45,512 bases of DNA from positions 1 to 45,512 of the forward strand of contig JANPNF010000263.1 of assembly GCA_031427315.1 (NCBI GenBank), written 5' to 3'. Made by a program: the position numbers and the translations under genes. The DNA is from Burkholderiales bacterium (GTDB lineage: Bacteria > Pseudomonadota > Gammaproteobacteria > Burkholderiales > Burkholderiaceae_C). This document shows positions 3,151-40,566 of the stretch, one piece after another; the first letter of the stretch is position 1, and the number at the start of each line of letters is the position of its first letter. The notes beneath the pieces are model-generated. The model ran no database searches, was not told the origin of the DNA, and worked only from the letters and a program-made list of their open reading frames with translations.

Positions 3151-3289
3151 GCATCAGGCTGGTGATGCGGCGTGTGGATGAGGCCCGCAAGGCAAATGCT
3201 TTGCGACCGCAACCGACCGGCAATCACCTTTCTTTTGTGGGTTGCCGGCTTCGACTTGACGCCGCAACCCCACCTGTGCCCCAATCCGC

Positions 3290-5373
<2,084 letters not shown>

Positions 5374-14924: not shown

Positions 14925-14982
14925 TAATACATGGTGCGAGAGTGGCATCTGCATTAGCAGCGCCGCTTGATCTGCAAGACAG

Positions 14983-15080
14983 CTAGGGTTCCGTGCCCGG
15001 CCCTGTGCCGGGTGGACTGGTCCGAGAGCGGTCGGCCGCAATGCATCGCGGTTCCACGGAGGGACAAAAGCCCGGGAGGA
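14983..15080 (+). promoter_or_regulatory. Guanidine-I riboswitch (ykkC-yxkD motif), copy 1
   Basis: CTAGGGTTCCG ... CTGGTCCGAGAG ... CCACGGAGGGACAAAAGCCCGGGAGG reproduces the invariant ykkC blocks. It is followed by the classical guanidine regulon genes. Confidence 0.9.
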
Positions 15081-18367: not shown

Positions 18368-18462
18368 GGCAACGTTGCCCTTAGGCCACGCCACGCCGCG
18401 CCGGACGACCGGAGTGTGCATCCGATGAGCGCAGGACGACCTGCTTTGCCGCTGAGCCCGCC

Positions 18463-24004: not shown

Positions 24005-24069
24005 TGGACGTGTGGGCAGGTGGAGCGAGTTCGCAGAGTCAAACCGTGCACTCCTCACACTCAGGGTCA

Positions 24070-24182
24070 CTAGGGTTCCGATTGGCAGTAATGCCGGTGC
24101 TGGTCCGAGAGTGCCCCGGCTTCGAAGGCTGCCGTGACAACGGCCGCGTCGAGGCTCCACGGAGGGATAAAAGCCCGGGAGA
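24070..24182 (+). promoter_or_regulatory. Guanidine-I riboswitch (ykkC-yxkD motif), copy 2
   Basis: CTAGGGTTCCG ... CTGGTCCGAGAG ... CCACGGAGGGATAAAAGCCCGGGAGA. Downstream, TCTCC (24203-24207) can pair with the aptamer-closing GGAGA (24178-24182), and a T-rich run lies at 24216-24223. Confidence 0.9.
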
Positions 24183-24239
24183 TTGACGCATCGAACACGT
24201 CTTCTCCTGCGCCCGTTTCTTTTACCTGGAGCTCTCGAC

Positions 24240-25292: not shown

Positions 25293-26296
25293 GCTTCCGC
25301 GCCCCGGACGGCGCCGCGCCCAACATGGCGGCGCTGGCCTTCACCCTCATCGGCTACCCGGTCGGCATCGCCTTGTTGACCGTGCCGTCCTGGGCGCTCA
25401 ACGCGATCGGATTCGTGCTGCTGACGCTGACCCTCGTCTGGTCGGCCTACTACATCCATGAGTTCGCGCACCAGGCCATTTTCCGCAACCCAGCGCTCAA
25501 CGAACGCTGGGGCACGCTGATGAGCTGGCTCAACGGCAGCTGCTACGCACGCTTCGCCGACCTGCGGCGCAAGCACATGCGCCACCACGTCGAGCGCGCC
25601 GACGTGATCACCTTCGATGCACGCGGCTTCCTGCTGGCCGCCCCGGCCTGGCTGCGCCGCAGCGTGCTGGCGCTGGAGTGGGCCTACTTCCCGGCGGTCG
25701 AATTCCTGATGCGCGGCTTCGTGGTCGCGCTGCCGTTCAAGCCCGGCGGCTCGAATGCGACACGGGCCCGCATCGTCAGCATTGCCTTGCTGAGATTCGG
25801 CGCCTTCGCCGCGCTCGGCTGGTATTCGCCGAAGGCGCTGGTGCTGTACTTCACCGCCTACCTGGCATTCGTCACGGTGCTGCGTTTCGCCGACTGTTTC
25901 CAGCACACCTACGACGCGTACCCGATCCTGGATGACGCGCCGATCCCGAACGACAAGGTGCGTGACCGCGCCTACGAACAGGCCAACACCTTCAGCAACG
26001 TCGTCGGGCTCGACAGCTTCTGGCTGAACTTGCTGTGGCTGAACTTCGGCTACCACAACGCCCACCACGAGCGCCCCACCGTGCCCTGGCACCGCTTGCC
26101 GGCCTATCACCGTGAGCTCTACGGTGAGGGCTACCGCCAGGTGGTGCCGATGAGTCAGCTGCTGAAGGCGTTTCACCGGCACCGCCTCACCCGTGTGCTG
26201 TCGGGCGATTACGGCGAGGTTCGCGACCCCGAAGTGTCTGGGCGTGCCGATGGCTTCGTCGGCGCGGTCGGCGTGTCGTTCCTGACGGCGGTCTGA
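25289..26296 (+). CDS. Membrane fatty-acid-desaturase-family di-iron enzyme (desaturase/hydroxylase-like)
   Basis: Three histidine boxes, HEFAH, HMRHH and HNAHH, with hydrophobic N-terminal and central segments. The start is either the GTG at 25289, overlapping the upstream stop (GTGA), or the ATG at 25325. Confidence 0.8.
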   Translation: MSFRAPDGAAPNMAALAFTLIGYPVGIALLTVPSWALNAIGFVLLTLTLVWSAYYIHEFAHQAIFRNPALNERWGTLMSWLNGSCYARFADLRRKHMRHHVERADVITFDARGFLLAAPAWLRRSVLALEWAYFPAVEFLMRGFVVALPFKPGGSNATRARIVSIALLRFGAFAALGWYSPKALVLYFTAYLAFVTVLRFADCFQHTYDAYPILDDAPIPNDKVRDRAYEQANTFSNVVGLDSFWLNLLWLNFGYHNAHHERPTVPWHRLPAYHRELYGEGYRQVVPMSQLLKAFHRHRLTRVLSGDYGEVRDPEVSGRADGFVGAVGVSFLTAV

Positions 26297-26297
26297 T

Positions 26298-27122
26298 GTG
26301 ACCGTCAACGTCGCTTCGCGGGGTGGCCCGCGGACTGAGCCGTGCCACGGCCTGCAAGGCCTCACCGTGGTGTTGACCGGTGCGGCCGGCGGCATCGGTC
26401 GCGCGCTGGCGACGGCGTTCGCCGAACAGGGCGTGCGCTTGATCGTGACCGATCGCGATACGCAAGCCCTGCACCGCCTGGCCGACGGGCTGGCGGCCAG
26501 CGCACAGGTGACAGCGATCGCCGCCGACCTCGGGCTGGACCACGACCTGAACGCCTTCGCAGCCGATGTGCAAGCCAGCCACGGTCGGGTCGACGTGCTG
26601 GTCAACAACGCCGGTACCGAGTACCCGACACCGCTGGCCGATGTGGCGCCGGACGCCGCAGCGCGCTGGTCGGCACTGCTCGACAACAACGTCGGCAGCA
26701 TGGCTCGGCTCACCCGTGCGCTGTTGCCGCTGATGACCGAGGGCGCCAGCGTCATCAACCAATCGTCGATCTGGGGGCTGACCGGTGTGGCGGACTTCTC
26801 GGCCTATGTGGCGAGCAAACATGCGGTGATCGGCCTCACGCGTTCACTGGCCTGGGAGCTGGCGCCGCGCGGCATCCGTGTCAATGCGGTGTGTCTGGGC
26901 TGGATCCGCACCGAGGCAGCGCTGCGCTCGCTGGCCAGCATGGCCGCCGTGCAAGGGCGCAGCGAAGCCGAGGTGGAACGCGAGATCCTGTCGCGGCAGG
27001 CCAACCCGACGATGCTGGACGCGTCCGACATCGCCGGCGTGTTTCTGTTCCTGGCGAGTCGCGACGCGCTCTCGCTGACCGGCCAGGCGATCAGTGCCAG
27101 CCATGGCGAGGTCATGAATTGA
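26298..27122 (+). CDS. Short-chain dehydrogenase/reductase
   Basis: TGAAGGIGRA, NNAG and YVASKHA (YxxxK). The GTG lies 1 nt after the upstream stop. Confidence 0.85.
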   Translation: MTVNVASRGGPRTEPCHGLQGLTVVLTGAAGGIGRALATAFAEQGVRLIVTDRDTQALHRLADGLAASAQVTAIAADLGLDHDLNAFAADVQASHGRVDVLVNNAGTEYPTPLADVAPDAAARWSALLDNNVGSMARLTRALLPLMTEGASVINQSSIWGLTGVADFSAYVASKHAVIGLTRSLAWELAPRGIRVNAVCLGWIRTEAALRSLASMAAVQGRSEAEVEREILSRQANPTMLDASDIAGVFLFLASRDALSLTGQAISASHGEVMN

Positions 27123-27904
27123 TGGCGACCGAAACAGCGCTCACCGACACCCTTCGGCTGACCCTCGTCGGCCGCGTCGTGCTGGTGACGGGTGCCGCAA
27201 CCGGCATCGGCCGGGCCATCGCCCTGGCCTGCGGCCGCGCCGGGGCGGCGGTCGCGGTCAACCACCTGGGCCGCGCGGCAGAGGCCGAGTCCGTCGTGAG
27301 GCAACTCGCGGCGGCGGGGGCATCAGCACTGGCCTTCGAGGCCGATGTGACCCAGGCCGCCGCGGTGACCGCCATGGTCAGCGCGGTGGAGCGCGCCTTC
27401 GGGCCGATCGATGCGCTGGTCAACAACGCCGGCATCCTGCAGGAAAAGCCCTTCCTCGACACCACGGAAGCCGATTGGGATCGCATGCTCGACACGGACC
27501 TGAAGTCGGTCTTCCTGATGTGCAAGGCGGTGCTGCCCGGTATGGTCGCCCGCAGTACTGGGGTGATCGTCAACATCGCCTCCGACCTCGGCGTGCTGGG
27601 CCGTGCGCAGTTCGCGCCCTACTGCGCCGCCAAGGCCGGCGTGATCGGCCTGACGCGTTCGCTGGCGCGCGAGTTCGCACCGCACATCCGCGTCAATGCG
27701 ATCGCGCCGGGGGCGGTTGCCACTGCGATGCTGTCGACCGAACACATGAGCCCGGAATGGATCGCCAAGGAACTCGACATCCCGCAGCACCGCTTCGGCG
27801 AACCCGACGAAATCGCCGCCACCGCGTTGTTTTTGCTGTCCGACCTGTCGCGCTTCTATTGCGGGCAGGTGCTGAGCCCGAACGGCGGCTCGCTGATGGC
27901 ATGA
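27122..27904 (+). CDS. Short-chain dehydrogenase/reductase (FabG-like)
   Basis: TGAATGIGRA, NNAG and YCAAKAG. The start overlaps the upstream stop (TGATG). Confidence 0.88.
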   Translation: MATETALTDTLRLTLVGRVVLVTGAATGIGRAIALACGRAGAAVAVNHLGRAAEAESVVRQLAAAGASALAFEADVTQAAAVTAMVSAVERAFGPIDALVNNAGILQEKPFLDTTEADWDRMLDTDLKSVFLMCKAVLPGMVARSTGVIVNIASDLGVLGRAQFAPYCAAKAGVIGLTRSLAREFAPHIRVNAIAPGAVATAMLSTEHMSPEWIAKELDIPQHRFGEPDEIAATALFLLSDLSRFYCGQVLSPNGGSLMA

Positions 27905-27920
27905 GTCCACGGCGTCAACG

Positions 27921-28850
27921 ATGTTTCCCGCCACCTCGCCCGTGATCGTGGCCGCGAACCCGACGCCGCGCGATACCCGCGGGCCCACGCTGGTGCTGCT
28001 CACCTCGACCGTGTTGTGGGGCCTGCTGTGGTGGCCGCTGAAGGGCTTCTCCGCCGCCGGCTTGTCGGGGCCGGTGTTGTCCTTGCTGACCTATGGCGCG
28101 GTCGGTGTCTGCAGCATCGGTTTTTTGTGGCGCCAACGCCGGGCCTGGCGACCGCAGACCGGTTTGCTGCTGTTGCTGATGGCGGTCGGCGGCTGGGCCA
28201 ATTCCGCTTTCGTGCAGGCGCTGGTGCTCGGCGACGTGGTGCGGGTGATGCTGCTGTTCTACTTGGCGCCGGTGTGGTCGGTGCTGGGTGGGCGATTGTT
28301 CCTGGGCGAGGCGATCAGCCGCCGTCGCGGGTTCGCGGTGGCGCTGGCGCTGGTCGGCCTGTGGTTCGTGATCGGTGGCAGCGCGGCCTGGGCGCGGCCC
28401 TTGGGCACCGCCGACTGGCTGGCGTTGACGGCGGGTCTCGCCTTCGCCGGCAACAACCTGATCTCGCGCGCCGCACAGGCGATCCCAATGCTGTCGAAGA
28501 CGGTGGCGGTGTTCTTCGGTTGCGGCGTGGTGTCGGCGGCCAGCGCGCTGCTGACCGGCGCGGTCGTGCCAGTGATCAGCGTGCCGCTCGCGCTGGGCCT
28601 GGCGGGCTACGCCTTCGTCTGGCTGGTGCTGGCGACCGTCACCTGGCAGTACGGCGTGACGCACCTCGAAAGCGGCCGTGCGGGCGTGATCCTGACCATC
28701 GAATTGCTGGTGTCGGTGGTGTCGGCCGTGCTGCTGGGCGGGGAATCGCTGCGGCCGAGTGAATGGGCTGGTGGCGTGCTGATAGCCGTTGCGGCATTGA
28801 TCGAGGCCACCGATTCGAACGAGTCTGTACATAAGGAGATCTCTGTATGA
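27921..28850 (+). CDS. EamA/DMT-family membrane transporter
   Basis: 309 aa, about 10 hydrophobic helices, and the two-fold internal EamA architecture. Confidence 0.8.
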   Translation: MFPATSPVIVAANPTPRDTRGPTLVLLTSTVLWGLLWWPLKGFSAAGLSGPVLSLLTYGAVGVCSIGFLWRQRRAWRPQTGLLLLLMAVGGWANSAFVQALVLGDVVRVMLLFYLAPVWSVLGGRLFLGEAISRRRGFAVALALVGLWFVIGGSAAWARPLGTADWLALTAGLAFAGNNLISRAAQAIPMLSKTVAVFFGCGVVSAASALLTGAVVPVISVPLALGLAGYAFVWLVLATVTWQYGVTHLESGRAGVILTIELLVSVVSAVLLGGESLRPSEWAGGVLIAVAALIEATDSNESVHKEISV

Positions 28851-29611
28851 GCACTGTCTGGATGAACCAGCTGTCGTGGGTCGACTACGAGGCGCGGCTG
28901 AAGCAGGACCAGCCTGCGATCCTGCTGCCGGTCGGTGCGCTCGAACAACACGGTCCCCACCTGCCGCTGGGCACCGACGGCCTGCTGTCCGCTGCGGTCG
29001 CCGCCGATACCGCCGCGCGCATCGGCGCGCTGGTCGCGCCGACGCTGTCGTATGGCTACAAATCGCAGCCGAAGTGCGGCGGAGGTCAGCATTTCTGCGG
29101 CACCACCAGTGTCGACGCGGCGACTTTGATCGGCTCGGTGCGTGATGCGGTGCGCGAGTTCGCACGGCACGGTGCCACCAAACTGGTGTTCGTCAACGGC
29201 CACTACGAGAACCAGTGGTTCCTGACCGAAGGCATCGACCTCGGCCTGCGCGACCTCGGCGCGCGCTCGACGCTGCAGGTGATGCGCCTCGAATACTGGG
29301 ACTTCCTGTCGGAGGCCACGCTGGCCAGCGTGTTCCCCGACGGCTTCCCCGGCTTCGCACTGGAGCATGCGGCGGTGATCGAGACCTCGATGATGCTGCA
29401 CTACCACCCGAGCCTGGTGCGGCTGGATTTGATCCCCGACGAGTCGCCGGCCGACTTCCCGCCCTACGACGTCTACCCGACGCGCAAGCACTGGGTGCCG
29501 CTGTCGGGCGTGCTGTCGTCGGCGCGCGGTTCCAGCGCCGAGAAGGGTGCAGCGATGGCGGCCGAGCTGTCGATGCGCATCGCCGCAGCGATCACGCACG
29601 AATTCGGCTGA
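28847..29611 (+). CDS. Creatinine amidohydrolase (creatininase)
   Basis: LSWVDYEARL, LPVGALEQHGPHLPLGTD, YGYKSQPKCGGGQHFCGTTS, VNGHYEN and FPPYDVYP follow the Pseudomonas putida creatininase sequence, as I remember it, block by block. AAGGAG Shine-Dalgarno, and the ATG overlaps the upstream stop (ATGA). Confidence 0.85.
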   Translation: MSTVWMNQLSWVDYEARLKQDQPAILLPVGALEQHGPHLPLGTDGLLSAAVAADTAARIGALVAPTLSYGYKSQPKCGGGQHFCGTTSVDAATLIGSVRDAVREFARHGATKLVFVNGHYENQWFLTEGIDLGLRDLGARSTLQVMRLEYWDFLSEATLASVFPDGFPGFALEHAAVIETSMMLHYHPSLVRLDLIPDESPADFPPYDVYPTRKHWVPLSGVLSSARGSSAEKGAAMAAELSMRIAAAITHEFG

Positions 29612-29625
29612 CGAGTTCGACCGAG

Positions 29626-30294
29626 ATGAGCAAGCCGATGTTCGACGTGTCCCGCACTGCGCTGCTGGTGATCGACCTGCAGCGCGATTTCCTCGATTCG
29701 CGCGGCTACGCGGCACAGGCGGGTGTCGATGTGTCGCGGCTGCGCGCCACGCTGGCCCCGGTGTGCGCACTGATCGACGCGGGGCGAGAGGCCGGTCTGC
29801 GCATCGCCTACACCCGCGAAGGGCACCGGCCCGACCTGTTGGATTGCCCGCCGGCCAAGCTGGCGCGCAGCCGCCACGCGGGCGCCGAAATCGGCTCGAC
29901 CGGGCCGCTCGGCCGCTTGCTGGTGCGTGGCGAACCGGGCCATGGGCTGGTCGACGAGCTGCAGCCGCGCGCCGATGAGCCGGTGATCGACAAACCCGGC
30001 TACAGCGCCTTCCACCAGACCGATCTCGACCAGATTTTGCGCGGCTGGGGCACCGACACCCTGATCGTCTGCGGCGTCACCACCGAGGTCTGTGTGCACA
30101 CCACGCTGCGAGCGGCTACCGACCACGGTCTGCGCTGCATCACCGTCAGCGATGCCTGTGCCGCCTCTGATCCGGCGCTGCAGCAACCCGCGCTGGCGAT
30201 GATTGCGGTCGAAGGCGGCATCTTTGGTGTGGTGATCGACAGCGCCACACTGATTGCGCAACTGCAGCGCCCCCACGACAAGGAGATCCGATGA
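29626..30294 (+). CDS. Isochorismatase-family cysteine hydrolase (biuret/guanylurea/N-carbamoylsarcosine amidase-like)
   Basis: Asp-Lys-Cys triad context: LLVIDLQRDF, VIDKPGYSAF, LIVCGVTTEVCVHTT. Confidence 0.8.
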   Translation: MSKPMFDVSRTALLVIDLQRDFLDSRGYAAQAGVDVSRLRATLAPVCALIDAGREAGLRIAYTREGHRPDLLDCPPAKLARSRHAGAEIGSTGPLGRLLVRGEPGHGLVDELQPRADEPVIDKPGYSAFHQTDLDQILRGWGTDTLIVCGVTTEVCVHTTLRAATDHGLRCITVSDACAASDPALQQPALAMIAVEGGIFGVVIDSATLIAQLQRPHDKEIR

Positions 30295-31097
30295 CACAGG
30301 TACGCAAACTCACGCCGCTGCTGACAGCCACGCATCGGTACGACAAATCGATCTCGACCTGGCAGCGCGGGCGCGGTCAGCAAATCGAGGCGCCGATCCT
30401 CGCCTACCTGATCGAGACTGCGAACGGCCGCATCCTGTACGACGTGGGCTGCGACCACGCGAAGATTGCTGATCCGGTTGCCCGCAATCGCCACTACAAC
30501 CCGGCGACCTTCGAGTTTGGCGCGCCCGACATGCGCGAGGAGCAGCGCCTTCCGCGCCATCTGGCGCGGCTCGGCCTGACGCCGGCCGATGTCGACGTGA
30601 TCTTCATCGGCCACCTGCATTTCGACCACGCCGGCGGGTTGCGCGAGCTGCGCCGCTGCGGCTGTGGTGCCGAAATCCATGTGCAGCGTGACGAGATGGA
30701 AGTCGCACTCAGCGGCGCCGACCCGGCGGTGTTCGCCGACGACCTGATCGACGACGTTGGCGCGCCGCTGCAGTTCAGGCTGCAGTCGGGCGAGTACAGC
30801 GTGCTGCCCGGCGTGCAGGCGGTGGCAACGCCTGGCCACACGGTCGGCCACATGTCGATGTGGATCGAGATGCCGAAAGGCCCACCGGTCCTGCTGGCCG
30901 GTGATGCGGCCGATCTGCAGGAAAACATCGACGACGAGGTTGCGCCTGGAACACTGTGGCAGGGCAGCGAGGCGCAGGCCATCGCCAGCATCCGCAAGTT
31001 GAAGGCGCTGGCCGCCGACACCGGCGCCTGGCTGTGGCCGAACCACGATTTCGCGTTCTACCGCTCGCTGCCGGCGTTTCCGCAGTTTGTGGAATGA
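30291..31097 (+). CDS. Metallo-beta-lactamase-fold hydrolase (lactonase-like)
   Basis: HLHFDHAGG (HxHxDH), TPGHTVGH, LLAGD. AAGGAG Shine-Dalgarno and an ATGA overlap with the upstream gene. Confidence 0.82.
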   Translation: MTQVRKLTPLLTATHRYDKSISTWQRGRGQQIEAPILAYLIETANGRILYDVGCDHAKIADPVARNRHYNPATFEFGAPDMREEQRLPRHLARLGLTPADVDVIFIGHLHFDHAGGLRELRRCGCGAEIHVQRDEMEVALSGADPAVFADDLIDDVGAPLQFRLQSGEYSVLPGVQAVATPGHTVGHMSMWIEMPKGPPVLLAGDAADLQENIDDEVAPGTLWQGSEAQAIASIRKLKALAADTGAWLWPNHDFAFYRSLPAFPQFVE

Positions 31098-31914: not shown

Positions 31915-31930
31915 AGGCACGCCTGTTGCT
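31915..31930 (+). promoter_or_regulatory. Sigma-54 (RpoN) type -24/-12 promoter
   Basis: AGGCAC-GCCTG-TTGCT, intergenic. The predicted transcription start falls inside the palindromic operator that follows. Confidence 0.5.
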
Positions 31931-31937
31931 TCTAGTG

Positions 31938-31965
31938 GTATTACGAATCAAGTAATTCGTAATAC
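31938..31965 (+). promoter_or_regulatory. Perfect palindromic operator with NikR-type geometry
   Basis: GTATTACGAAT-caagta-ATTCGTAATAC has perfect 11-bp arms and can be read as GTATTA-N16-TAATAC (the E. coli NikR box is GTATGA-N16-TCATAC). It is an AT-rich island in GC-rich DNA. TAATAC is repeated directly at 31966-31971. Confidence 0.6.
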
Positions 31966-32035: not shown

Positions 32036-33001
32036 ATGAGGGCGCTCCAAATGCTCTTGCCACGCCGGCGACTGATGCCCCGCACCCACTGGTTGCTGGG
32101 CCTGGGGTCGTTCATCGTGCCGCTGCTGATCTGGTGTGTGGTCAGTTACGTGCCCGGCGTCTGGCATCCGCAGATGCGCATCGTCGATGCGGGCGATGTC
32201 GACTACTTCCAGCCGGGCATGCGCGCAGATGTCGACCAGTTCGACAGCGAGGTTCAGGGCCTGCGCGCGAAGGGTGGCCGCGTGCCCATCGGCGTGCTGT
32301 CGAACCCGATCTACCTGCCGGCGCCGCACGAGGTGGCGATCGCTTTCGTGCGCGCGTTCTCGAACACGCCGAAGCAGACCGGCGGCAAGGGCATCCTCGA
32401 CAGCATGGGCGACAGCATCCGGCTGATCGTCTTCGGCTTCCTGCTGTCATCGGTGATTGCGGTGCCGCTGGGCATCGTCTGCGGCACGTATTCAGCGCTG
32501 TCGCGGCTCAACGAGCCCTTCGTCGAGTTCTTCCGCTACCTGCCGGCACCGGCGTTCGGCGCGCTGGCCGTTGCGGTGCTCGGCATCTACGAAGGCCCGA
32601 AGGTGGCGATCATCTTCATCGGCACCTTTTTCCAGCAGGTGCTGGTGGTGGCCAACACCGCGCGCAAGCTCGATTACGCGCTGCTCGAAGCGGCGCTGAC
32701 GTTGGGCACCAAACCCCTGAAGCTGCTGACGCATGTGGTGGTGCCCGGCATCCTGCCCAACCTTTACCGCGACCAGCGCATCCTGCTGGGCTGGGCCTGG
32801 ACGTATCTGGTCGTGGCCGAGCTGATCGGCACCAGCTCGGGCATCACGCTGTTTATCACGCAACAGGCGCGCTTCCAGAATTTCGATGACGTCTACGCCG
32901 CGATCCTGATGATCGGCGTGATCGGCTTCGGCTCCGACCTGCTGCTGGCGCGGCTAGAGCGGGTGCTGTTCCCGTGGGACCGCGGCGCGCTGACCGACTG
33001 A
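32036..33001 (+). CDS. ABC transporter permease (NitT/TauT family), paralog of 15142..16002
   Basis: [24 protein letters not shown]...LGTKP matches the equivalent block of the first permease. Alternative starts are at 32051 (GAGGG Shine-Dalgarno) and 32072. Confidence 0.85.
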
Positions 33002-33003: not shown

Positions 33004-33912
33004 ATGCAGAACCCCGCCGACATTCCGTCGTACCTGACGCAATCGCAGCCGGTGCGCGAGCGCTTCGACCGCCTGAAGCAGCGCAAGGTGATCCTCGACG
33101 TGCAGCAGCTCGGCAAGCGCTTCAGCACCGGGCAGGGCGAGGTCGTGGCGCTGAGGGGCATCGACTTCAAGACCTACCGGCGCGAATTCGTCTGCATCAT
33201 CGGCCCGTCGGGCTGCGGAAAATCGACGCTGATCCGCATCCTGGCCGGACTGGAGACGCAGTCCGAGGGCCGTGTGCTGCTCGACGGCCAGGCGGTCTCC
33301 GGCCCGTGCCGCGACCGCGGCATGGTGTTCCAGGGCTACACGCTGTTCCCGTGGCTCAACGTCAAGCGCAATGTGATGTTCGGTCTGCGGATGAACGGCG
33401 CGAGTTACGGTCAGGCCGAACAGAACGCGATGCAGTGGCTAGATCTGGTGGGCCTGTCGAAATTTGCCGACGCCTACCCGCACCAACTCTCCGGCGGCAT
33501 GAAGCAGCGCGTGGCCATCGCGCGGGCCCTGGCCAACCAGCCACGCATCTTGTTGATGGATGAGCCGTTTGGCGCGCTCGACGCGCAGACGCGCGCCAAG
33601 ATGCAGTCGTACCTGCTGGAGATCTGGAAGAACATCGACATCACCATCGTGTTCATCACCCACGACCTCGACGAAGCGATCTTTCTGGCCGACCGCATCC
33701 TGGTGCTGAAGGCCCACCCGGGCGAGATGCAAGAGCTGATCGAGGTGCCGGTGCCGCGCCCGCGCAGCCCGGGGCAGGTCACCTCGCCGGAGTTCCGCGC
33801 GACCAAGGCGCGGCTCGAAGCGCTGATTCACACGCCGAGCGAGGCCACCGATGAAGACATCGTGCTGCCGCCGATCACCCGTTTGACCGACGTCAGCGAC
33901 AACGTGGAATGA
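33004..33912 (+). CDS. ABC transporter ATP-binding protein (NitT/TauT family)
   Basis: Walker [10 protein letters not shown], signature [15 protein letters not shown], Walker [12 protein letters not shown]. Confidence 0.9.
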
Positions 33913-33930: not shown

Positions 33931-34701
33931 ATGCAATGGTCTGAACTGACCTGGTCGGAAGTTCCGGACGCGCTCAAATCGGCGATGAGTGCCGCCATCC
34001 TGCCGGTCGGTGCCACCGAACAGCACGGTCCGCACATGGGCTGCGGCATGGACTTCGTGCTCGCCGACAAGCTCTGTCGCGAGGTCGCACAGCGCACCGG
34101 TGTGCCGATGCTGCCGACGCTGCCCTACGGCTGCTCGGTCGGCCACAGCCGGCGCTGGCCCGGCACGCTGGCGGTGCAGCCGATCACGCTGATCGAGCTG
34201 GTCAAGCAGATCGGCGACTGGGCCCACCACAGCGGTGTGCGGCGGCTGTTCATCGTCAACACCCACGTGACGAACGCCGCGCCGCTGCGCTGTGCGCTGG
34301 AAATGCTGCGCGCCGAACACGACGAGATGATGGTGTCGGTCATCAACTCGGCCACGATCAGCCCGCGGGTGCGCCAGTTTCATTTCGCCGACGGCGACGA
34401 CTGGCACGCCAACGACGCCGAGACCTCGCTGATGCTGGCGCTGGCACCGACCATGGTGCGCCCCGAGCGCCTCGGCCAGGCCGACGACATCGATCGCACC
34501 GGCAGCCTGGTGTTCTCGCACCCGGTCAACCGCACCAGCCTGAACGGCGTGACCGGTGCGCCCAGCCTGGCGGCTGCCGATAAGGGCCGTGAATGGTTCG
34601 GCTGGATGGTCGAGGACCTGAGCGAACTGATCACCCGCGGCCTGCACGAAGAACCGCCGCTGGCGCATTCCTATTTCTCCACACACCACCACGAAGGCTG
34701 A
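33931..34701 (+). CDS. Creatininase-family amidohydrolase (divergent second copy)
   Basis: [18 protein letters not shown] keeps the family metal motif, but NTHVTN replaces NGHYEN and the YGYKSQ substrate-side block is absent. GGAG lies 5 nt before the ATG. Confidence 0.8.
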
Positions 34702-34706: not shown

Positions 34707-36068
34707 ATGCACGCATCCGAAGAAGTCCTGGCCGTCCGCGACCGCTTGAAGGGGCAAGGTGTCAAGTACTGCATCGGCGCCTATGTGGACATCCACGGCA
34801 TCCCGAAAGCCAAGGTGGTGCCGATCGACCACCTGCCTCAGATGGCTGCCGGCTCCGAGCGCTACACCGGCTATGCGCTCGACGGCCTGGGCCAGGCGCC
34901 AAGCGACGACGAGCTGTCGTCGGTGCCCGATCTGGGCCACATCATCCAGTTGCCGTGGGAGCCGAAGATCGCCTGGATGCCGGCTGACAACACCTTTCAA
35001 GGCCGGCCCTACCCGTTGAGCACCCGCGTTGCGCTGAAGAACGTGCTGGCGCAGGCCGCCGAGATGGGGCTGGGCATGAACCTCGGCATCGAGTGCGAAA
35101 TCTACCTGCTGAAGCAGGCAGCCGACGGTACGCTGCAGGTGCCGAACCCGGACGACAAGCTGGTCAAGCCCTGTTACGACGTGCGCGGCTTCGTCGACCA
35201 GTTCAGCTGGCTCGACAAGATGGCCACCGCGATCGACGGCCTGGGCTGGGATCTGTACTCGTTCGACCATGAAGACGGCAACGGCCAGTTCGAGTTCGAC
35301 TTCGCCTACAGCGACGCGCTGCGCACGTGCGACCGCCTGATCTTCTTCCGCTTCATGGCCAAGCACTATGCCAAGGAAGAAGGCCTGCTGGCGACGATGA
35401 TGCCCAAGCCCTTCGGCAACCGCACTGGCACCGGCGCGCATTTCAACATGTCGCTGTACGACCTGAAGACCGGGGCCAACCGCTTCGCCTGCGACCCGAA
35501 GGACGACCCGCGCGGGCTGGGCCTGACCACGATGGGCTACCAGTTCATCGCCGGCATCCTGAAGCACGGTCCGGCACTGTGCGCGGCCTTCGCGCCGACG
35601 GTCAATAGCTACAAGCGGCTGGTGCGCCAGGGCGCGATGAGCTACTTCACCTGGGCGCCGGTGTTCAACTCCTTCGGCTCGAACAACCGGACCAACTCGG
35701 TGCGCGTGCCGGCCGGCGGCGGCCGCTGCGAATCACGCAATGCCGACGGCGCGGTGAATCCGTACCTGGCGGCCACACTGGCTTTGGCCGCCGGCCTTGA
35801 AGGCATCCGCGAGAACCTCGACCCCGGCAAGCCGAACGAGGACAACCTGTACGCGATGTCGGAGGCCGAGCGCCGCGAGCGCGGCATCGCGTTCCTGCCG
35901 CAGACGCTGCACGAGGCGGTCGAGGCTTTCGCGGCCGACCCGCTGGTCGAGAAGACGTTGGGCACCGAGTTGCGCAATGAGTTCATCAAGTACAAGACCG
36001 AGGAGTGGAACGCCTACCACCTGACGGTGAGCCAGTGGGAGGTCGATCGCTACAGCTACATGTTCTGA
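34707..36068 (+). CDS. Glutamine-synthetase-family ATP-dependent ligase (GS-like, 453 aa)
   Basis: GS catalytic blocks are present: [48 protein letters not shown]. It starts 5 nt after the creatininase-family stop. Confidence 0.85.
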
Positions 36069-36184: not shown

Positions 36185-36661
36185 TCAGCGCTTCTTAGCG
36201 TGAGGCGGTGGCGATGAATGCAGCGGCGGGATCACCGCGGCCATCAATTGAAGGCGCGCTGTGATCACGCCTTTCAGTGACGTCATGGCATCGACAATGC
36301 CCTGCAGCTTCGGCGCCGGGCCCTGCACCAGGATCACTTCCATCATCTTGTCTTCGGTCAGGTGCACGTGCAGCGAGCTGATGACCTCGGCAATGTTGTC
36401 GTACTGCAGGTCGGACAGCCGCCGCTGCAGGCCGCGCGTGCCGCGGTCGTAGAACAAGGTGATAGTGCCCGCCATCACCTCGTCGCCGAGTTCACGCTTG
36501 TGTTCGACCAGCTGCTGGTTGACCATGTCGCTGATCGCCTGCGAGCGGCTTTCATAGCCGCGGCTGCTGGCCATCTCATCGAGTTCGAGCAGCAGGTCCG
36601 GGTTCATCGAGATGCTGATGCGCACGACGAAACCGTTGGACTTGACGCTCGATCGGGGCAC
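36185..36661 (-). CDS. NikR-family ribbon-helix-helix regulator with an altered metal site
   Basis: The ribbon-helix-helix part RISISMNPDLLLELDEMASSRGYESRSQAISDMV aligns with E. coli NikR [34 protein letters not shown]. The C-terminal ACT-like domain retains LHVH. The GTG start lies 9 nt after the binding-protein stop (alternative GTG at 36625). Confidence 0.8.
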   Translation of the reverse strand: MPRSSVKSNGFVVRISISMNPDLLLELDEMASSRGYESRSQAISDMVNQQLVEHKRELGDEVMAGTITLFYDRGTRGLQRRLSDLQYDNIAEVISSLHVHLTEDKMMEVILVQGPAPKLQGIVDAMTSLKGVITARLQLMAAVIPPLHSSPPPHAKKR

Positions 36662-36670: not shown

Positions 36671-37660
36671 TTACTTGGGCAGGTACGACGCATCGATGTA
36701 GCTGTCGACATCCTGCGCTGCCTTGTAGACCCCGTTGGCCACATTGAAGTCGTCGGCCACCTTCGACGAGCCCGACAACGAGCCGAAGCCCGGCGCCTTG
36801 ACGAAGATCTTCTTGCTGTCCGCCAGCGTCAGTAGCTTCGTGCCCTTGAGCAGCGGCAGGTATTCGGCCGGCTTCAGACCGACGCGCGCCGACATGATCT
36901 TCAGCGCGTCGGGCTGCGTCTTCGGGTCGTTGATGTAGGCCACCACCTTGTCCCAGACCAGCACGACTTTCTTCCAGTCTTCCTTGCGCTTCGCCAGGCT
37001 GGTCGGGTTGACGCCAACGATGTCGTAGATCAGGCCGGGTTCTTCCGCGGAGGTGTAGAGCGGTTTCGCGCCGGGCGAGCCCTTCATCGCCTGACCCGAG
37101 ATCGGCTGCCAGGCGCCGATGGCCGAGATGTCTTTCGAAGCCAGAATCTGCGGCATCTCGTTGGTCTTGGCGTTGACCAGCGTGACATCGGCTTCCTTCA
37201 TGCCGGCCTTCTTCAGCCCGTTGAGCAGCAGCAGGTGCTCGACCAGCCCGAATTCAACCGCGACCTTCTTGCCCTTCAGGTCTTTCAGCGTCTTGATGCC
37301 TGGCTTGCCGACAATCATGTCGTTGCCGTTGGAGTAGTCGGTCAGCACGATCGCCACGCTTTTGCCGCCACCGGCACCTGTCACCAGTGCGTCGCCGTTG
37401 GTCATGCACACCGCGTCGATCTTGCCGGCGGTGAACGCGTCCAGCGAAGCCGAGTAGTCGAACCACTCCAGCTTCACGTCGACACCGGCGTCCTTGAAAA
37501 ACCCCTTGTCCTGCGCCACCTGCCAAGCAACCCAGCCTGGCCAGTCGCTGTAGCCGATCTTCAGCGGCTCGGCCGCCCGCGTGGGCAGCACGGTCAGCGA
37601 CAGCGCCGCCGGGATCAAGGACGTAAAGAGCCGGCGGCTCACGCGAAACATGGAAGTCAT
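36671..37660 (-). CDS. ABC transporter substrate-binding protein (NMT1/THI5-like), paralog of 24240..25292
   Basis: MTSMFRVSRRLFTSLIPAALSLTVLPTRAAEPLKIGYSDWPGW... has a twin-arginine-like SRRLF motif. A GGAA Shine-Dalgarno precedes the ATG at complement 37658-37660. The rest of the listed 519-aa ORF is an extension. Confidence 0.85.
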   Translation of the reverse strand: MTSMFRVSRRLFTSLIPAALSLTVLPTRAAEPLKIGYSDWPGWVAWQVAQDKGFFKDAGVDVKLEWFDYSASLDAFTAGKIDAVCMTNGDALVTGAGGGKSVAIVLTDYSNGNDMIVGKPGIKTLKDLKGKKVAVEFGLVEHLLLLNGLKKAGMKEADVTLVNAKTNEMPQILASKDISAIGAWQPISGQAMKGSPGAKPLYTSAEEPGLIYDIVGVNPTSLAKRKEDWKKVVLVWDKVVAYINDPKTQPDALKIMSARVGLKPAEYLPLLKGTKLLTLADSKKIFVKAPGFGSLSGSSKVADDFNVANGVYKAAQDVDSYIDASYLPK

Positions 37661-37677: not shown

Positions 37678-37705
37678 GTGTTACGGGGGCGTCTGTCGGT
37701 AATAC
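37678..37705 (-). promoter_or_regulatory. Second NikR-geometry operator
   Basis: GTGTTA-N16-TAATAC, with extended arms GTGTTAC / GTAATAC. It lies 18-45 nt upstream of the binding-protein start codon. Confidence 0.5.
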
Positions 37706-37724: not shown

Positions 37725-37740
37725 AGCAATACTGAGGCCA
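37725..37740 (-). promoter_or_regulatory. Sigma-54 (RpoN) type -24/-12 promoter
   Basis: The minus strand reads TGGCCT-CAGTA-TTGCT. It faces the binding-protein/NikR-like operon, and the operator lies just downstream of it. Confidence 0.45.
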
Positions 37741-37774: not shown

Positions 37775-38065
37775 ATGATCGTTCGCATTGAAATTGACAC
37801 CCCGCCGGGCGGCCTGTTCGACTACCGGGTCACCGACGAAGGCGAGACGCTCTACACCGATGCTGAACTGCCGTCGCTTGCCGACGCGCTGGTCGCGGCG
37901 GTGGAAGGGCTGGCGCCTGAGGTCGTCGGAGCCGAGGTCTGGTTCCGCGGCGTGGTGTCGGGCACCTATCCGCTGCATGTCATTGCCGTCAACCACGCGC
38001 AGATCGCCACCCATGCGGCCAACACCACCGCGGCGATTTTCGAAGGTCTCGCGCGGCCCGACTGA
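37775..38065 (+). CDS. Small hypothetical protein (96 aa)
   Basis: AGGA lies 8 nt upstream of the ATG and codon bias is coding-like. It is divergent from the binding-protein operon. No motif recognised. Confidence 0.55.
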   Translation: MIVRIEIDTPPGGLFDYRVTDEGETLYTDAELPSLADALVAAVEGLAPEVVGAEVWFRGVVSGTYPLHVIAVNHAQIATHAANTTAAIFEGLARPD

Positions 38066-38069: not shown

Positions 38070-39197
38070 TTAGTCGGTGTGGGCTGGCACGTGGTCGAGG
38101 GGGGCCACGGTGTCGGCGCCGTCGGCCGCGCACACCCGGTTGCGACCCTGCCGTTTGGCCCGGTACAGGGCAGCGTCGGCGCGCTCGACGGTCGCGAGGA
38201 ACGGTTCGCCGGTCTCCAGCCCGGCGACACCGATCGACACCGTCTTCATCATCGAGAGGCCATCGGGCAGTGGGTGCCGGTGCATCGCCACCGCCTCCAG
38301 CATCTTGTGCGCCACCAGCGTGGCTGAGGCGATGTCGGTCGCCGCCAAGCACACCATAAATTCCTCGCCACCCCAGCGCAGCACGTTGTCGCCCTTGCGC
38401 AGTTCGCGGCGCAGCAGATCGGCCATGCCGCACAGCAGCTGGTCGCCGCAGGCGTGCCCGTGGTCATCGTTGACGCGCTTGAAATGGTCGATGTCGATCA
38501 TCAACACGGCAGCCGGGGGATCGAACGGGCTGCTACGCAGGATCGGCCGCGCAACCACATCGACCGCATGCCGGTTCAGCAGGCCGGTCAGGGCGTCGGA
38601 ATAAGCCGCCTCGCGCAGCAGCGTGCGTTCGGCGGCCACCGACAGCACTGAGCTGAACATGTCCGCCAAGGCCTGGAACAGGCCGATGCCGACCTGTTCG
38701 AAATAGTCCGGCACATCGGCATACAGCGCCAGCAAGCCCCGGTCGGCGTTGACCGTCGAGGCCAACGGCAGTGACACCGCGCTGCGGATGCCGTGCATCG
38801 CCGCCGCCTCGCGCCAGGGGCCGTACAACGACATCCGCGACACATTGAAAGGCTCGACCCGCTTGCCCGCCAACGTGCGGAAGGCCGGGCCGATTTCGGT
38901 CAGGAAGCTGCGATCGATCGCCAGCTTGTGGGCGTAGGCCGCAGCCGGCCCGACGACGATCTGCGGCACGATGGAAGGGGTTTCGACCGGACCGAACCAA
39001 GTCCACGCCAGGCGCACATGCGGCGTGGCCAGCGTCAGTGCCTCGCACACCCGGTGGATGATGTCGCGGTCATTGCGCTGCTCCAGCAGGCGAGACGCGC
39101 TGCGCACCAGCGATTCGGCAACGCAGGCTTTCTCCCGGCTGGCGTCGAAGTGGGGCGTCTCGGCGGGGAGCTGTTGAAAGGGCAGGCGCAGCTTCAT
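38070..39197 (-). CDS. GAF-like sensor diguanylate cyclase (GGDEF domain, GGEEF active site)
   Basis: DALTGLLNRH, IDIDHFKRVNDDHGHACGD, LRWGGEEFMV, RADAALYRAKRQGRNR. The start is MKLRLPF at complement 39195-39197. Confidence 0.85.
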   Translation of the reverse strand: MKLRLPFQQLPAETPHFDASREKACVAESLVRSASRLLEQRNDRDIIHRVCEALTLATPHVRLAWTWFGPVETPSIVPQIVVGPAAAYAHKLAIDRSFLTEIGPAFRTLAGKRVEPFNVSRMSLYGPWREAAAMHGIRSAVSLPLASTVNADRGLLALYADVPDYFEQVGIGLFQALADMFSSVLSVAAERTLLREAAYSDALTGLLNRHAVDVVARPILRSSPFDPPAAVLMIDIDHFKRVNDDHGHACGDQLLCGMADLLRRELRKGDNVLRWGGEEFMVCLAATDIASATLVAHKMLEAVAMHRHPLPDGLSMMKTVSIGVAGLETGEPFLATVERADAALYRAKRQGRNRVCAADGADTVAPLDHVPAHTD

Positions 39198-39366
39198 GGG
39201 AAAGCGGTCATCATGACGACGGTCGCGCCGCGTGGGAGCGACAGTGAAGAATGGACTGCAAGGCAGCTTTATGGAGGCTTCGTTTGGTTGATATCGGCAC
39301 TTTTCGGTCCGACCCAATGGGCGAGCCCATCCGCTCGGCCGTCGGAAGCAGCTTTGCCCTGGCGGA

Positions 39367-39978
39367 ATGCGCCCTCTGAAGCCCCGTCGCTTGCTGGGCA
39401 CGGCACTGGCTGTCGCGCTGTTGTTCAGCGTTCCCGCGGCGGCGCGGGCTCAGCCCGCGCCGCCGCTGGGTGAGTTGACGCTGTATGGCGTGCGCCTCAA
39501 GGGCGCGTCTTTTGAGGCCTTCATTGCGGCGGCGCTGAAGGCTGGCGCCACACCGCTCGCACAGCGCACCGACGGGCCGCCGAGCTTCGACACCCGGGCC
39601 GCTGGCGTGCCAGCGCTGCAGCGCCTGACGGTGGTGAGCGATGCTGCGGGGCTGGTGAGTGCGCAGTTCGTCATCAAGGCGTACGGTCAGGAAAACGAGG
39701 CGCTGCGCCAGTTGCTGGTCAGCAAATACGGATTGCCCACCACCGCCGATGGCGCGCGTCGGCCGTTCCCCGCGTTCGCCGCCCGTTTCGCGCCACGTGG
39801 CAGCTTCGACTGGGATTTCGTCGGCGGCATGAAGCTGATCTACCGTCAGCCGGCACTCGGCGATGCCACGCTGTCGTACACCGATGCCGAGCGGGCGCGG
39901 CGCCTGCCCGTCTCGATCCCAATCCCGATCCCGACGCCCAGCGCCACTGGCCCGGGACCGCTGGTCAACCGGTTTTGA
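39367..39978 (+). CDS. Secreted hypothetical protein
   Basis: Signal peptide MRPLKPRRLLGTALAVALLFSVPAAARA-QP, with a Pro-rich C-terminus (IPIPIPTP). Confidence 0.6.
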   Translation: MRPLKPRRLLGTALAVALLFSVPAAARAQPAPPLGELTLYGVRLKGASFEAFIAAALKAGATPLAQRTDGPPSFDTRAAGVPALQRLTVVSDAAGLVSAQFVIKAYGQENEALRQLLVSKYGLPTTADGARRPFPAFAARFAPRGSFDWDFVGGMKLIYRQPALGDATLSYTDAERARRLPVSIPIPIPTPSATGPGPLVNRF

Positions 39979-40008: not shown

Positions 40009-40566
40009 ATGGTGAACGCCGCGCCGCTGTTCCTCGACGAGCTGACCGGCTTGCACCACCGGGCGTATTTTCTCGATCGCCTCAGTGAAGCTGCCGAGGC
40101 GGCACAGACCGGGCAACACGCGCTGGCGCTGTTGCTGGTGGACCTCGACAACCTGTTTCTGATCAACATGGAGCGCGGTCGGCAACACGGCGACCGGGCA
40201 TTGGTGGCTTTGGCAATGACGCTTCAGCGCTCGGCTCGGCCGGGCGACACGGTGGCGCGGCTCGGCGGCGATCAATTCGTTATGTTGCTGCCGGGCACTT
40301 CGCTGGTCACCGCAACCCAGTTCGCCTGTGGCATCCGCAGCCTGGTCGGCCGCGCGCACGACGTACATCTGGACCTCGGCACGATCGACGTGTGCATCGG
40401 CGTGGCTGCATGCCCGGAACGTGCGCCGTGGCGCGCTCACGAGCTGCTGTCGCTGGCCGACCTGCGGCTGGATTCCGCGAAGCGCTCGCGCCACCGGCCG
40501 GGTTGCCCGCAACAGGTGTGGGCGGGGCCCCCCGAGCTGCCGGACGAAGCCGACGGCGACGGCTGA
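40009..40566 (+). CDS. Stand-alone GGDEF-domain protein with a degenerate GGDQF site
   Basis: DELTGLHHRAYF, LLVDLDNLFLINMERGRQHGD, ARLGGDQFVMLL. There is no sensory domain. Confidence 0.7.
   Translation: MVNAAPLFLDELTGLHHRAYFLDRLSEAAEAAQTGQHALALLLVDLDNLFLINMERGRQHGDRALVALAMTLQRSARPGDTVARLGGDQFVMLLPGTSLVTATQFACGIRSLVGRAHDVHLDLGTIDVCIGVAACPERAPWRAHELLSLADLRLDSAKRSRHRPGCPQQVWAGPPELPDEADGDG

Follow-up and report, generated by a model that had tools for sequence, protein, structure and literature searches.

What does a regulator with the fold of the nickel repressor NikR sense when it stands beside a NitT/TauT-type binding protein and not beside nickel genes? The question is raised by a gene in a 45,512-nt stretch of DNA from a Burkholderiales bacterium, here called the window, in which a sequence-only reading had suggested a NikR fold repurposed for another metal or a small nitrogenous ligand. 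The gene belongs to a cassette that is split in the window, with a permease–ATPase–hydrolase–ligase unit on the plus strand and an SBP–regulator unit on the minus strand:

36185..36661, minus strand: NikR-like regulator gene, 158 amino acids, GTG start
36671..37660, minus strand: gene for a NitT/TauT-type periplasmic substrate-binding protein (SBP, NMT1 family), directly upstream of the regulator gene
32036..33001, plus strand: ABC permease (BPD_transp_1, NitT/TauT type), start uncertain, reading frame open from 32006
33004..33912, plus strand: ABC ATPase, start uncertain, reading frame open from 32974
33931..34701, plus strand: creatininase-fold hydrolase, an optional cassette member
34707..36068, plus strand: GlnT-like ligase of the type III glutamine-synthetase family (TIGR03105, 640 bits)

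The SBP start was placed at the ATG at 37660, downstream of an AAGGAA ribosome-binding site, and the SBP stop codon at 36671 lies 9 nt from the regulator start on the same strand. Co-transcription of the two genes, which had been asserted at the outset, is plausible from this arrangement; RNA-seq support for it was sought, and the sequencing runs that contain the regulator sequence are DNA metagenomes only. The ligase gene converges on the regulator gene, and between the two we found no terminator consensus and no fold better than that of shuffled sequence (z = −0.08). Despite its fold, the hydrolase is not a genuine creatininase, since its TIGR04448 score is 113 bits and the cut-off is 235. 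No second NikR-like gene was found within the 45.5-kb window.

The regulator has the architecture of NikR. An N-terminal ribbon-helix-helix (RHH) domain, which matches Pfam RHH_1 over residues 14–51 (24.4 bits against a cut-off of 20.5) and had first been described as intact, is followed by a C-terminal ACT-like NikR_C domain (residues 64–139, 83 bits) and a conserved tail, AAVIPPLH. The R14-x-S16-x-S18 strand and the GYxSRSxAI helix of the RHH domain are conserved across the clade. An AF2 model has pLDDT above 90 for the C-domain (residues 65–140), and the top 50 Foldseek matches to this model are all NikR, with C-domain rmsd of 0.8–1.4 Å. The protein scores 116.1 against a cut-off of 105 with NCBIfam NF003381 and barely passes NF002815 (83.8 against 83), and it falls below TIGR02793 (76 against 175), NF002169 and NF001884. 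Because some of these curated NikR models pass, pipelines name the protein NikR, as the names in the source records show.

The high-affinity, square-planar nickel site of NikR is formed by His76′ from the neighbouring chain together with His87, His89 and Cys95 (E. coli numbering). A phmmer search against PDB chains aligned the regulator segment DLQYDNIAEVISSLHVHLTEDKMMEV without gaps to P. horikoshii NikR (2bj1), and a BLASTP alignment with the NikR of E. coli K-12, taken as the translation of its genome record, equates Y87 with H76, H98 with H87, H100 with H89 and M106 with C95. This is the register of the sequence-only reading, in which H76 had become Tyr and C95 Met while H87 and H89 were kept. 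That reading would have fallen to a corrected register bringing back all four ligands; no such shift exists, as the phmmer and BLASTP alignments to three solved NikRs are gap-free across the site. The statement that two of the four ligands are kept is correct for H87 and H89 but understates the change, because the second-shell His62 of NikR is also replaced, by Arg73. The regulator contains no cysteine at all. As judged from these alignments, the square-planar nickel site is absent.

Among the 120 closest cluster representatives, Tyr87 occurs in 114, His98 and His100 in every one and Cys106 in none. At the Cys95-equivalent position, members of the regulator clade carry M, L, I, V or T, a hydrophobic position whose variety led us to reject Met106 as a replacement ligand. 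Arg73 is found in 98% of clade members, against His62 in 99% of canonical representatives; the 69–72 canonical NikR representatives have the ligands H, H, H and C at 100%, and the five positions H62, H76, H87, H89 and C95 are kept at 99–100% in canonical NikRs where the query clade has R73, Y87 and M/L/I106. Over the wider clade, the residues at the four former nickel positions differ, reading RHQR, RHLV or YNNT. Ten polar residues are 94–100% conserved in the subclade of the regulator (R73, D84, Y87, E92, H98, H100, E103, E108, Q113 and H148), with H98 and H100 at 100% and H148, in the PPLH tail, at 97%; those specific to the whole site-degenerate clade are limited to E92, Q113 and the PP motif of the C terminus. 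That set was too small to define a common ligand pocket from a single-chain model.

The regulator is one of many such proteins. In a representative set of 131 NikR-fold sequences at 50% identity, 59 lack the HHHC site. On the tree, E. coli, H. pylori and P. horikoshii NikR group with the other HHHC sequences, 72 in all, in one clade (100/90), and the query falls in a separate clade of 61 rows with degenerate sites (99/91). Members of the regulator clade from different phyla are 58–70% identical, and by sequence comparison the C-domain is under strong purifying selection; an isolated, decayed NikR or a pseudogene was rejected, given a large conserved clade under such selection. In the literature on NikR, NikR-like proteins and guanidine-related enzymes, we found no description of this clade.

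The gene neighbourhood is conserved as well. At 75 further loci from several phyla, the regulator gene follows the same cassette of NitT/TauT ABC importer and GlnT-like ligase, with or without a creatininase-like hydrolase between them. The order SBP–permease–ATPase–(hydrolase)–GlnT-like–regulator is found in about 20 of 21 genome loci, which span Alpha-, Beta- and Gammaproteobacteria and Verrucomicrobia, and most of 80 metagenome loci likewise run from SBP to regulator; SBP orthologues head the cassette in these other loci. The same SBP-to-regulator order occurs in Gibbsiella and Thiobacillus, and Herminiimonas has a rearranged, divergent version. Three contigs (P0121, P0122 and P0150) were too short for informative gene context. 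No gene for nickel uptake, a nickel enzyme or a metal transporter was found in the window or in the loci with Pfam-annotated neighbours, in agreement with the original remark that the regulator adjoins a NitT/TauT binding-protein gene and not nickel genes; around 100 other loci were screened with the cassette proteins only and speak to synteny, not to the absence of nickel genes.

What the regulator is likely to bind can be read in the leaders of the two units, each of which has a sigma-54-type promoter element followed by an inverted repeat:

31915..31930, plus strand: sigma-54-type −24/−12 element AGGCACGCCTGTTGCT, a sequence match only, 7 nt upstream of dyad 1
31938..31965, plus strand: operator dyad 1, GTATTACGAATCAAGTAATTCGTAATAC, a perfect GTATTA-N16-TAATAC whose arms are 11 bp long, located in the leader of the permease–ATPase–hydrolase–ligase unit
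37725..37740, minus strand: sigma-54-type −24/−12 element TGGCCTCAGTATTGCT, a sequence match only, 19 nt upstream of dyad 2
37678..37705, minus strand: operator dyad 2, GTATTACCGACAGACGCCCCCGTAACAC as read on the minus strand, one mismatch to GTATTA-N16-TAATAC, in the leader of the SBP–regulator unit

The two palindromes of the sequence-only reading are thus real. At up to two mismatches, the 45.5 kb contain exactly two dyads, against 0.03 expected, and both are in cassette leaders. Across loci the consensus is GTATTAC-N14-GTAATAC, 28 bp long and 4–19 nt downstream of the sigma-54-type −12 element, and it therefore covers the transcription start region. The dyad is present in 47 of 48 leaders of cassettes with the regulator and in 1 of 8 without (Fisher p = 3e-7), and split cassettes (the window, L003 and L004) have one dyad per unit. 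GTATGA-N16-TCATAC, the nik operator as it stands in the E. coli K-12 genome, has the same architecture. We infer that the regulator binds the two dyads. Together with the phylogeny, the three lost invariants and the synteny, this co-occurring operator supports the original proposal of a NikR fold repurposed away from nickel.

Several observations link the clade to guanidine. The window itself contains two Guanidine-I riboswitches and one Guanidine-II riboswitch that drive a guanidine carboxylase operon. In Thiobacillus, the regulator gene lies mid-operon before two DUF1989 genes, a carboxylase gene and an allophanate hydrolase gene, with no riboswitch. The dyad heads guanidine carboxylase operons in some lineages; more distant clade members have the same dyad adjoining importer and carboxylase genes, and members with this operator and guanidine genes vary at all four former nickel positions. 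There is a published parallel for the NitT/TauT-type importer: GimABC, an ABC system of this type, takes up guanidine and binds it with a Kd of about 97 nM (PMC12704784).

A further link is an exchange. In five cassettes without the regulator (L028, L029, L091, L095 and L107), a Guanidine-I riboswitch lies directly before the SBP gene, with matches of 77–94 bits against a gathering score of 63, and in four of the five a sigma-54-type promoter precedes it; in L099 the riboswitch lies further upstream, again behind a sigma-54-type promoter. Such a riboswitch before the SBP gene was found in none of the 48 regulator-bearing leaders and in 4 of the 8 others (p = 2e-4), and the riboswitch and the pair of regulator and dyad are mutually exclusive in 55 of 56 informative leaders. 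One leader, L057, has a sigma-54 promoter, a dyad and a Guanidine-I riboswitch in tandem. The riboswitch-bearing cassettes are orthologous, their GlnT-like proteins being 73–96% identical, and on the tree of these proteins riboswitch-type cassettes are interspersed among regulator-type ones, which implies at least four switches; the nearest kin of the window on that tree are the near-identical L002 and then L028 and L029, both of the riboswitch type. Of the two ligand classes first proposed, a small nitrogenous ligand therefore fits much better and a metal fits worse, because sister-lineage cassettes stand under a Guanidine-I riboswitch and because distant members keep the operator and guanidine genes while varying at the nickel positions.

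We therefore favour, with reasonable but far from full confidence, a NikR-like autoregulated repressor of a nitrogen-scavenging cassette with guanidine as its effector. A tetramer-type RHH repressor of the NikR fold would bind the 28-bp dyad over the transcription start region. With one dyad before each half of the cassette, one of them in the SBP–regulator leader, the regulator would control its own gene as well. The cassette would serve as a nitrogen-scavenging module for guanidine, in which the sigma-54 promoter would supply the nitrogen-limitation input and the NikR-like protein the substrate-specific one; in the sister lineages, the Guanidine-I riboswitch would give the substrate-specific input at the same position. 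On binding to the C-terminal domain, guanidine or a very closely related compound would lower DNA affinity and so induce the cassette. The ligand of canonical NikR strengthens binding to DNA, so substrate induction requires the opposite sign; both repression and the direction of the effect are inferred here from sequence and context. The regulator is a strong candidate for a protein sensor of guanidine, and guanidine is probably the effector, on the evidence of gene neighbourhood and riboswitch exchange. The broader claim is that the clade is the first protein transcription factor to sense free guanidine: a metalloregulator fold would have been turned, with loss of its nickel site, into a sensor for a small organic cation, functionally interchangeable with the Guanidine-I riboswitch at the sigma-54 promoters of nitrogen-scavenging operons and repeatedly swapped with it in evolution. 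We regard this claim as about as likely as not.

The same dyads could instead report another nitrogen metabolite (glutamine, 2-oxoglutarate, urea, ammonium, a substituted guanidine or an intermediate of the route), the guanidine signal then coming from riboswitches only. The ACT-like fold commonly binds amino acids, and the C-domain of the regulator has this fold; ligand-promoted DNA binding of the NikR type would moreover suit feedback repression by a product. Dyad and riboswitch in series in L057 would be redundant if both sensed guanidine, and in this genome the neighbouring carboxylase operon is under guanidine riboswitches while the cassette has the protein, so that the two inputs could differ. 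However, nitrogen status would already have a route through the sigma-54 promoter, and in L111 and L112 clade members head operons without the GlnT-like and hydrolase genes, which rules out a product of those enzymes as the effector shared by the clade. The repeated one-for-one swap with a guanidine-specific riboswitch behind the same type of promoter points to the same input, and we judge a different nitrogen metabolite to be unlikely.

That the protein still responds to a metal through a rebuilt site, whether Ni, Zn, Cu or another on which the pathway enzymes depend, is less probable still. Because H98, H100 and H148 are strictly conserved in the subclade (the first two invariant, the third at 97%), a different metal site is possible, for example from H98, H100 and His148 with Tyr87 or Glu103. 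Enzymes of the creatininase fold have binuclear metal centres. GdmH, another enzyme that acts on guanidine, depends on nickel (PMC12704784). Yet H62, H76 and C95, invariant in the 69–72 canonical NikRs, are all replaced in a protein without cysteine; no metal transporter or nickel enzyme occurs in the window or the annotated-neighbour loci; not every cassette has the hydrolase, and the carboxylase route works without nickel; and wider-clade members with R/H/Q/R, R/H/L/V or Y/N/N/T at these positions have the same operator and the same operons. Such variation, and the lack of a definable pocket, would rather suit an autorepressor with no ligand, whose C-domain serves tetramerization only and which damps or sets sigma-54-driven expression, and a position at the tail of its own target operon would by itself give homeostatic autoregulation. 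This reading we consider very improbable, since purifying selection on the C-domain and its conserved polar residues exceed what a scaffold needs, and since repeated exchange with a ligand-sensing riboswitch argues for sensing. Guanidine sensing by a repressor that acts on its own cassette thus remains our preferred account.

To our knowledge, guanidine sensing in bacteria is carried out by RNA alone, in four riboswitch classes (guanidine-I to -IV), so a protein sensor, if confirmed, would be new biology; the repressor and its 28-bp operator could then become a part for guanidine biosensors and inducible expression. A 2026 survey still treats the NikR family as a single-function nickel family (10.64898/2026.05.01.721428); this case suggests that it is not. 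An NCBIfam 'equivalog' model passes the clade and so places the name 'nickel-responsive regulator NikR' in hundreds of genomes, where it misleads predictions of nickel regulons. Read as proposed here, the regulator instead marks cassettes of an importer, a creatininase-like hydrolase and a GlnT-like ligase as guanidine-linked.

Compared with characterized NikRs (E. coli, PDB 1q5v, 2hza and 2hzv; P. horikoshii, 2bj1–2bj9; H. pylori, 2ca9 and 6mrj), the regulator has the same RHH plus ACT-like NikR_C architecture, with a C-domain that superposes at 0.8–1.4 Å rmsd, and is 40% identical to P. horikoshii NikR and 29% identical to E. coli NikR. The pattern of the DNA-reading β-strand, Arg-x-Ser/Thr-x-Ser/Thr, is common to both, and both operators pair 6–7-bp half-sites at a spacing of two helical turns (GTATTA-N16-TAATAC for the cassette, GTATGA-N16-TCATAC for E. 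coli nikA). As with E. coli nikR, the gene comes last in an ABC-importer operon, of which its product is the predicted repressor. Unlike NikR, the regulator has Tyr in place of His76, Met/Leu/Ile in place of Cys95 and Arg in place of His62, has no cysteine, bears the conserved C-terminal extension AAVIPPLH and lies outside the clade of characterized NikRs; it accompanies guanidine-related nitrogen genes and sigma-54-type promoters in place of nickel uptake, hydrogenase or urease genes, and its ligand is predicted to induce, the opposite of the effect in NikR.

Another of the systems closest to the regulator is the Guanidine-I riboswitch (ykkC, RF00442), which stands in the same position, with a sigma-54-type promoter on one side and the SBP gene on the other. 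The riboswitch is a cis-acting RNA that works after initiation, on transcription or translation, whereas the regulator would be a trans-acting protein at the promoter; guanidine binding has been demonstrated for the former and is predicted for the latter. Cyanobacteria place guanidine genes under the nitrogen regulator NtcA together with a Guanidine-I riboswitch on gdmH (PMC12704784). In Synechocystis, this pairing applies the same two-input logic to a NitT/TauT-type guanidine importer and assimilation genes (gimABC, gdmH), but with NtcA at sigma-70-type promoters and RNA as the second input, and with the nickel-dependent GdmH as the enzyme in place of the GlnT-like ligase or the carboxylase (PMC12704784).

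The regulator gene is paired with the binding-protein gene of a NitT/TauT-type importer:

36185–36661, minus strand: regulator gene, an ORF with a GTG start, 158 aa
36671–37660, minus strand: NitT/TauT-type binding protein (SBP), NMT1 family, upstream of the regulator gene with a 9-nt gap

The regulator has the NikR fold. Pfam places RHH_1 at residues 14–51 (24.4 bits) and NikR_C at residues 64–139 (83 bits), and when all PDB chains were searched with phmmer the only significant matches were NikRs, led by P. horikoshii NikR 2bj1 (E = 9e-28), against which the metal-site stretch DLQYDNIAEVISSLHVHLTEDKMMEV aligns gap-free. An AF2 model, predicted as a single chain from a 70-sequence alignment, reaches a pLDDT above 90 at residues 65–140; its C-domain fits those of nickel-bound NikRs with an rmsd of 0.8–1.4 Å, and all of its top 50 Foldseek matches are NikR. 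BLASTP alignment to the translation of E. coli K-12 nikR, taken from the genome record, pairs Y87 with His76, H98 and H100 with His87 and His89, and M106 with Cys95, confirming the four pairings of the sequence-only reading. A register shift bringing back the four nickel ligands is ruled out by the query–NikR alignments, and the protein contains no cysteine. The sequencing runs in which the sequence occurs are all of metagenomic DNA.

These substitutions are shared by close relatives. Among the 120 closest 90%-identity clusters (65–97% identical to the query, from Thiobacillus, Herminiimonas, Parasulfuritortus, Gibbsiella and many metagenomes), Y-H-H-(M/L/I) stands at the four former nickel positions in 109; the first of these positions is Tyr in 114, and the fourth is never Cys. 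We compared residue conservation in 116 query-clade members and 69 canonical representatives. The canonical NikRs conserve H62 (99%), H76, H87, H89 and C95 (100% each) and E97 (97%), whereas the query clade has R73 at the H62 position (98%), Y87 (94%), H98 and H100 (100%), M, L or I at position 106 and E108 (99%). Also conserved in the clade are E92, E103, Q113, T134, R136 and a C-terminal extension, AAVIPPLH (P145 100%, H148 97%). A maximum-likelihood tree of 143 sequences, comprising 50%-identity representatives and three solved NikRs, has two main groups. One clade (support 100/90) holds all 72 sequences with the canonical ligand set (HHHC), including the E. coli, H. pylori and P. horikoshii NikRs; the query falls in a separate 61-row clade (99/91) with degenerate patterns such as RHQR, RHLV, RRLV, HHHT and YNNT, within which a Y/C-H-H subclade is nested (99/92). 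The HHHC site is missing from 59 of the 131 NikR-fold sequences in the 50%-identity representative set. Judged from these alignments and this tree, the query is a member of a conserved clade and no isolated accident.

We found no published description of this clade in the literature; a 2026 survey of metalloregulator families presents NikR as one dominant nickel-responsive cluster (10.64898/2026.05.01.721428), and a 2009 comparative study goes no further than to record NikR homologues in organisms without nickel use. Because the NCBIfam 'equivalog' NF003381 accepts the query (116 versus a cut-off of 105) and public sources call clade members nickel-responsive transcriptional regulator NikR, the naming of this clade without a nickel site is probably a systematic misannotation.

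The SBP–regulator pair converges on a plus-strand unit encoding an ABC permease, an ABC ATPase, a creatininase-fold hydrolase (scoring far below the true-creatininase cut-off) and a GlnT-like ligase of the type III glutamine-synthetase family (TIGR03105, 640 bits). These cassette genes are shared in about 20 of 21 loci from species-representative genomes, which span Beta-, Gamma- and Alphaproteobacteria and Verrucomicrobia. Usually they form a single operon arranged SBP–permease–ATPase–(hydrolase)–ligase–regulator, an order that also occurs in Gibbsiella quercinecans, in Thiobacillus and in most of 80 metagenome loci collected with the ligase as query. The next genes of the Thiobacillus operon, past the regulator, are a DUF1989 pair of the carboxyguanidine deiminase type and those for a urea/guanidine carboxylase and an allophanate hydrolase. 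In Herminiimonas arsenitoxidans (locus L024) the genes are in a different arrangement, the regulator being divergent from the others, and a Peptidase_C26/GATase gene of the gamma-glutamyl hydrolase type (3626–4381) closes the cassette, which hints that the ligase product may be a gamma-glutamyl adduct, hydrolysed later. No nickel transporter or nickel enzyme occurs in the window or in the loci with annotated neighbours, the remaining loci having been searched for cassette genes alone.

Both units carry a candidate operator, the dyad GTATTAC-N14-GTAATAC, and a promoter element:

31938–31965, upstream of the permease gene: dyad 1, GTATTACGAATCAAGTAATTCGTAATAC, a perfect dyad
7 nt upstream of dyad 1: sigma-54-type −24/−12 element, AGGCACGCCTGTTGCT
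37678–37705, leader of the SBP–regulator unit: dyad 2, within two mismatches of GTATTA-N16-TAATAC
19 nt upstream of dyad 2: sigma-54-type −24/−12 element, TGGCCTCAGTATTGCT

Allowing up to two mismatches, GTATTA-N16-TAATAC occurs exactly twice in the 45.5-kb window, versus 0.03 expected. Since a sigma-54-type element precedes each dyad, the dyads overlap the region where transcription is expected to start. In the K-12 genome the E. coli nikA operator reads GTATGACGAATACTTAAAATCGTCATAC, which has the same architecture. Across related loci, the SBP leader contains the dyad in 47 of 48 with the regulator gene versus 1 of 8 without it (Fisher p = 3e-7), strong comparative evidence for the dyad as the predicted binding site of the regulator. 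The dyad follows a sigma-54-type element by a few nucleotides in 41 leaders (4–19 nt in nearly all), and split cassettes (the window, L003 and L004) have a separate promoter and dyad for each of their two units. Just upstream of the SBP promoter is a 96-aa ORF without a Pfam family (37775–38065, plus strand). Two GGDEF diguanylate cyclase genes flank the cassette (38070–39401, minus strand; 40009–40566, plus strand), of which the first is also conserved beside the cassette in L001 and L002, its closest relatives.

Where the regulator is missing, a guanidine sensor can take its place. Five orthologous cassettes (L028, L029, L091, L095 and L107) lack both the regulator gene and the dyad and have a Guanidine-I riboswitch directly upstream of the SBP gene, scoring 77–94 bits against a gathering score of 63. 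A covariance model built from 14 of these Guanidine-I aptamers was run over 92 loci; the leader contains a riboswitch in none of 48 loci with the regulator versus 4 of 8 without (p = 2e-4). A sigma-54-type promoter opens four of the five riboswitch-type leaders (L028, L029, L091 and L095) and was not found in that of L107; L099 also has one, its riboswitch lying farther off, about 2.8 kb before the SBP gene. The promoter type is thus common to both kinds of cassette, and the exchanged element is only that between promoter and first gene. On the ligase tree, the six riboswitch-type cassettes are interspersed with 75 of the regulator type, a distribution that, on this tree, requires at least four switches; the window's nearest kin after the near-identical L002 are the riboswitch-type L028 and L029. 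Only one locus, L057 from a metagenome, has dyad and riboswitch in series: a sigma-54-type promoter, the dyad (1574–1601) and a Guanidine-I riboswitch (1650–1758) stand in tandem (1556–1758) on one leader, with a 230-aa gene of no clear family between these controls and the SBP gene.

Guanidine riboswitches are also found elsewhere in the window:

14972–15080: Guanidine-I riboswitch, heading an operon of permease, two DUF1989 genes, guanidine/urea carboxylase and allophanate hydrolase
18397–18444: Guanidine-II riboswitch, inside this operon, just before the carboxylase gene
24059–24183: Guanidine-I riboswitch, heading a second operon whose first gene encodes another NitT/TauT binding protein

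These riboswitches control the guanidine carboxylase operon, which is complete, and the second operon. Among 14 regulator-bearing sources searched with Rfam, nine have a guanidine riboswitch within 8–10 kb flanks, and in no case does the leader of the cassette itself contain one. The second operon (24183–31097) includes, besides its binding protein, an SDR, an EamA transporter, a metallo-beta-lactamase-fold protein, a membrane FA_desaturase-family protein (25289–26296), a true creatininase (28847–29611; TIGR04448, 355 bits) and an isochorismatase-family hydrolase (29626–30294), a combination that matches no described pathway known to us. A TPP riboswitch (3288–3398, 71 bits) precedes a long ORF on the plus strand (3466–5373).

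The association extends to distant clade members with other site patterns, which we located by exact sequence. P0126 (RHQR) heads a DUF1989–DUF1989–carboxylase–allophanate hydrolase operon, P0139 (RHLV) has a NitT/TauT importer on one side and those four genes on the other, and P0130 (YNNT) is downstream of an importer; the GTATTAC-N14-GTAATAC dyad is present at all three loci (L108, L111 and L112) and a Guanidine-I riboswitch at none. These NikR-fold relatives are about 45–50% identical to the query. The predicted operator and the guanidine link thus characterise the site-degenerate clade as a whole. The four positions vary across the clade, only E92, Q113 and the C-terminal PP motif are specific to all of it, and the clade-wide conserved residues define no shared ligand pocket.

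We propose that the regulator would bind the dyads as a tetramer and block sigma-54 holoenzyme at the start site, repressing the cassette and its own gene, and that guanidine on the C-domain would lift this repression. The proposal builds on the NikR fold, the loss of three canonical invariants, the separate clade, synteny, gene–dyad co-occurrence, the dyad's position at sigma-54-type promoters and the repeated swap with a guanidine-specific riboswitch.

Three other readings draw on the same facts: the tandem promoter, dyad and riboswitch of L057, the riboswitches next door in the window's own genome, and the sign of the response, for canonical NikR binds DNA in its liganded form whereas induction of the cassette needs the opposite. 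The effector may be a different nitrogen metabolite, which we consider unlikely. A metal site rebuilt from H98, H100 and H148 seems to us distinctly improbable, and is weakened by the variation of the former nickel positions across the clade while dyad and guanidine genes stay. That the protein is an autorepressor without any ligand we regard as very improbable.

The setting of the cassette fits published systems. GimABC, an ABC system of the NitT/TauT type, takes up guanidine (Kd about 97 nM), and cyanobacterial guanidine genes combine the nitrogen regulator NtcA with a Guanidine-I riboswitch (PMC12704784). A sigma-54 promoter joined to a NikR-like repressor would be the proteobacterial protein counterpart of this two-input logic.
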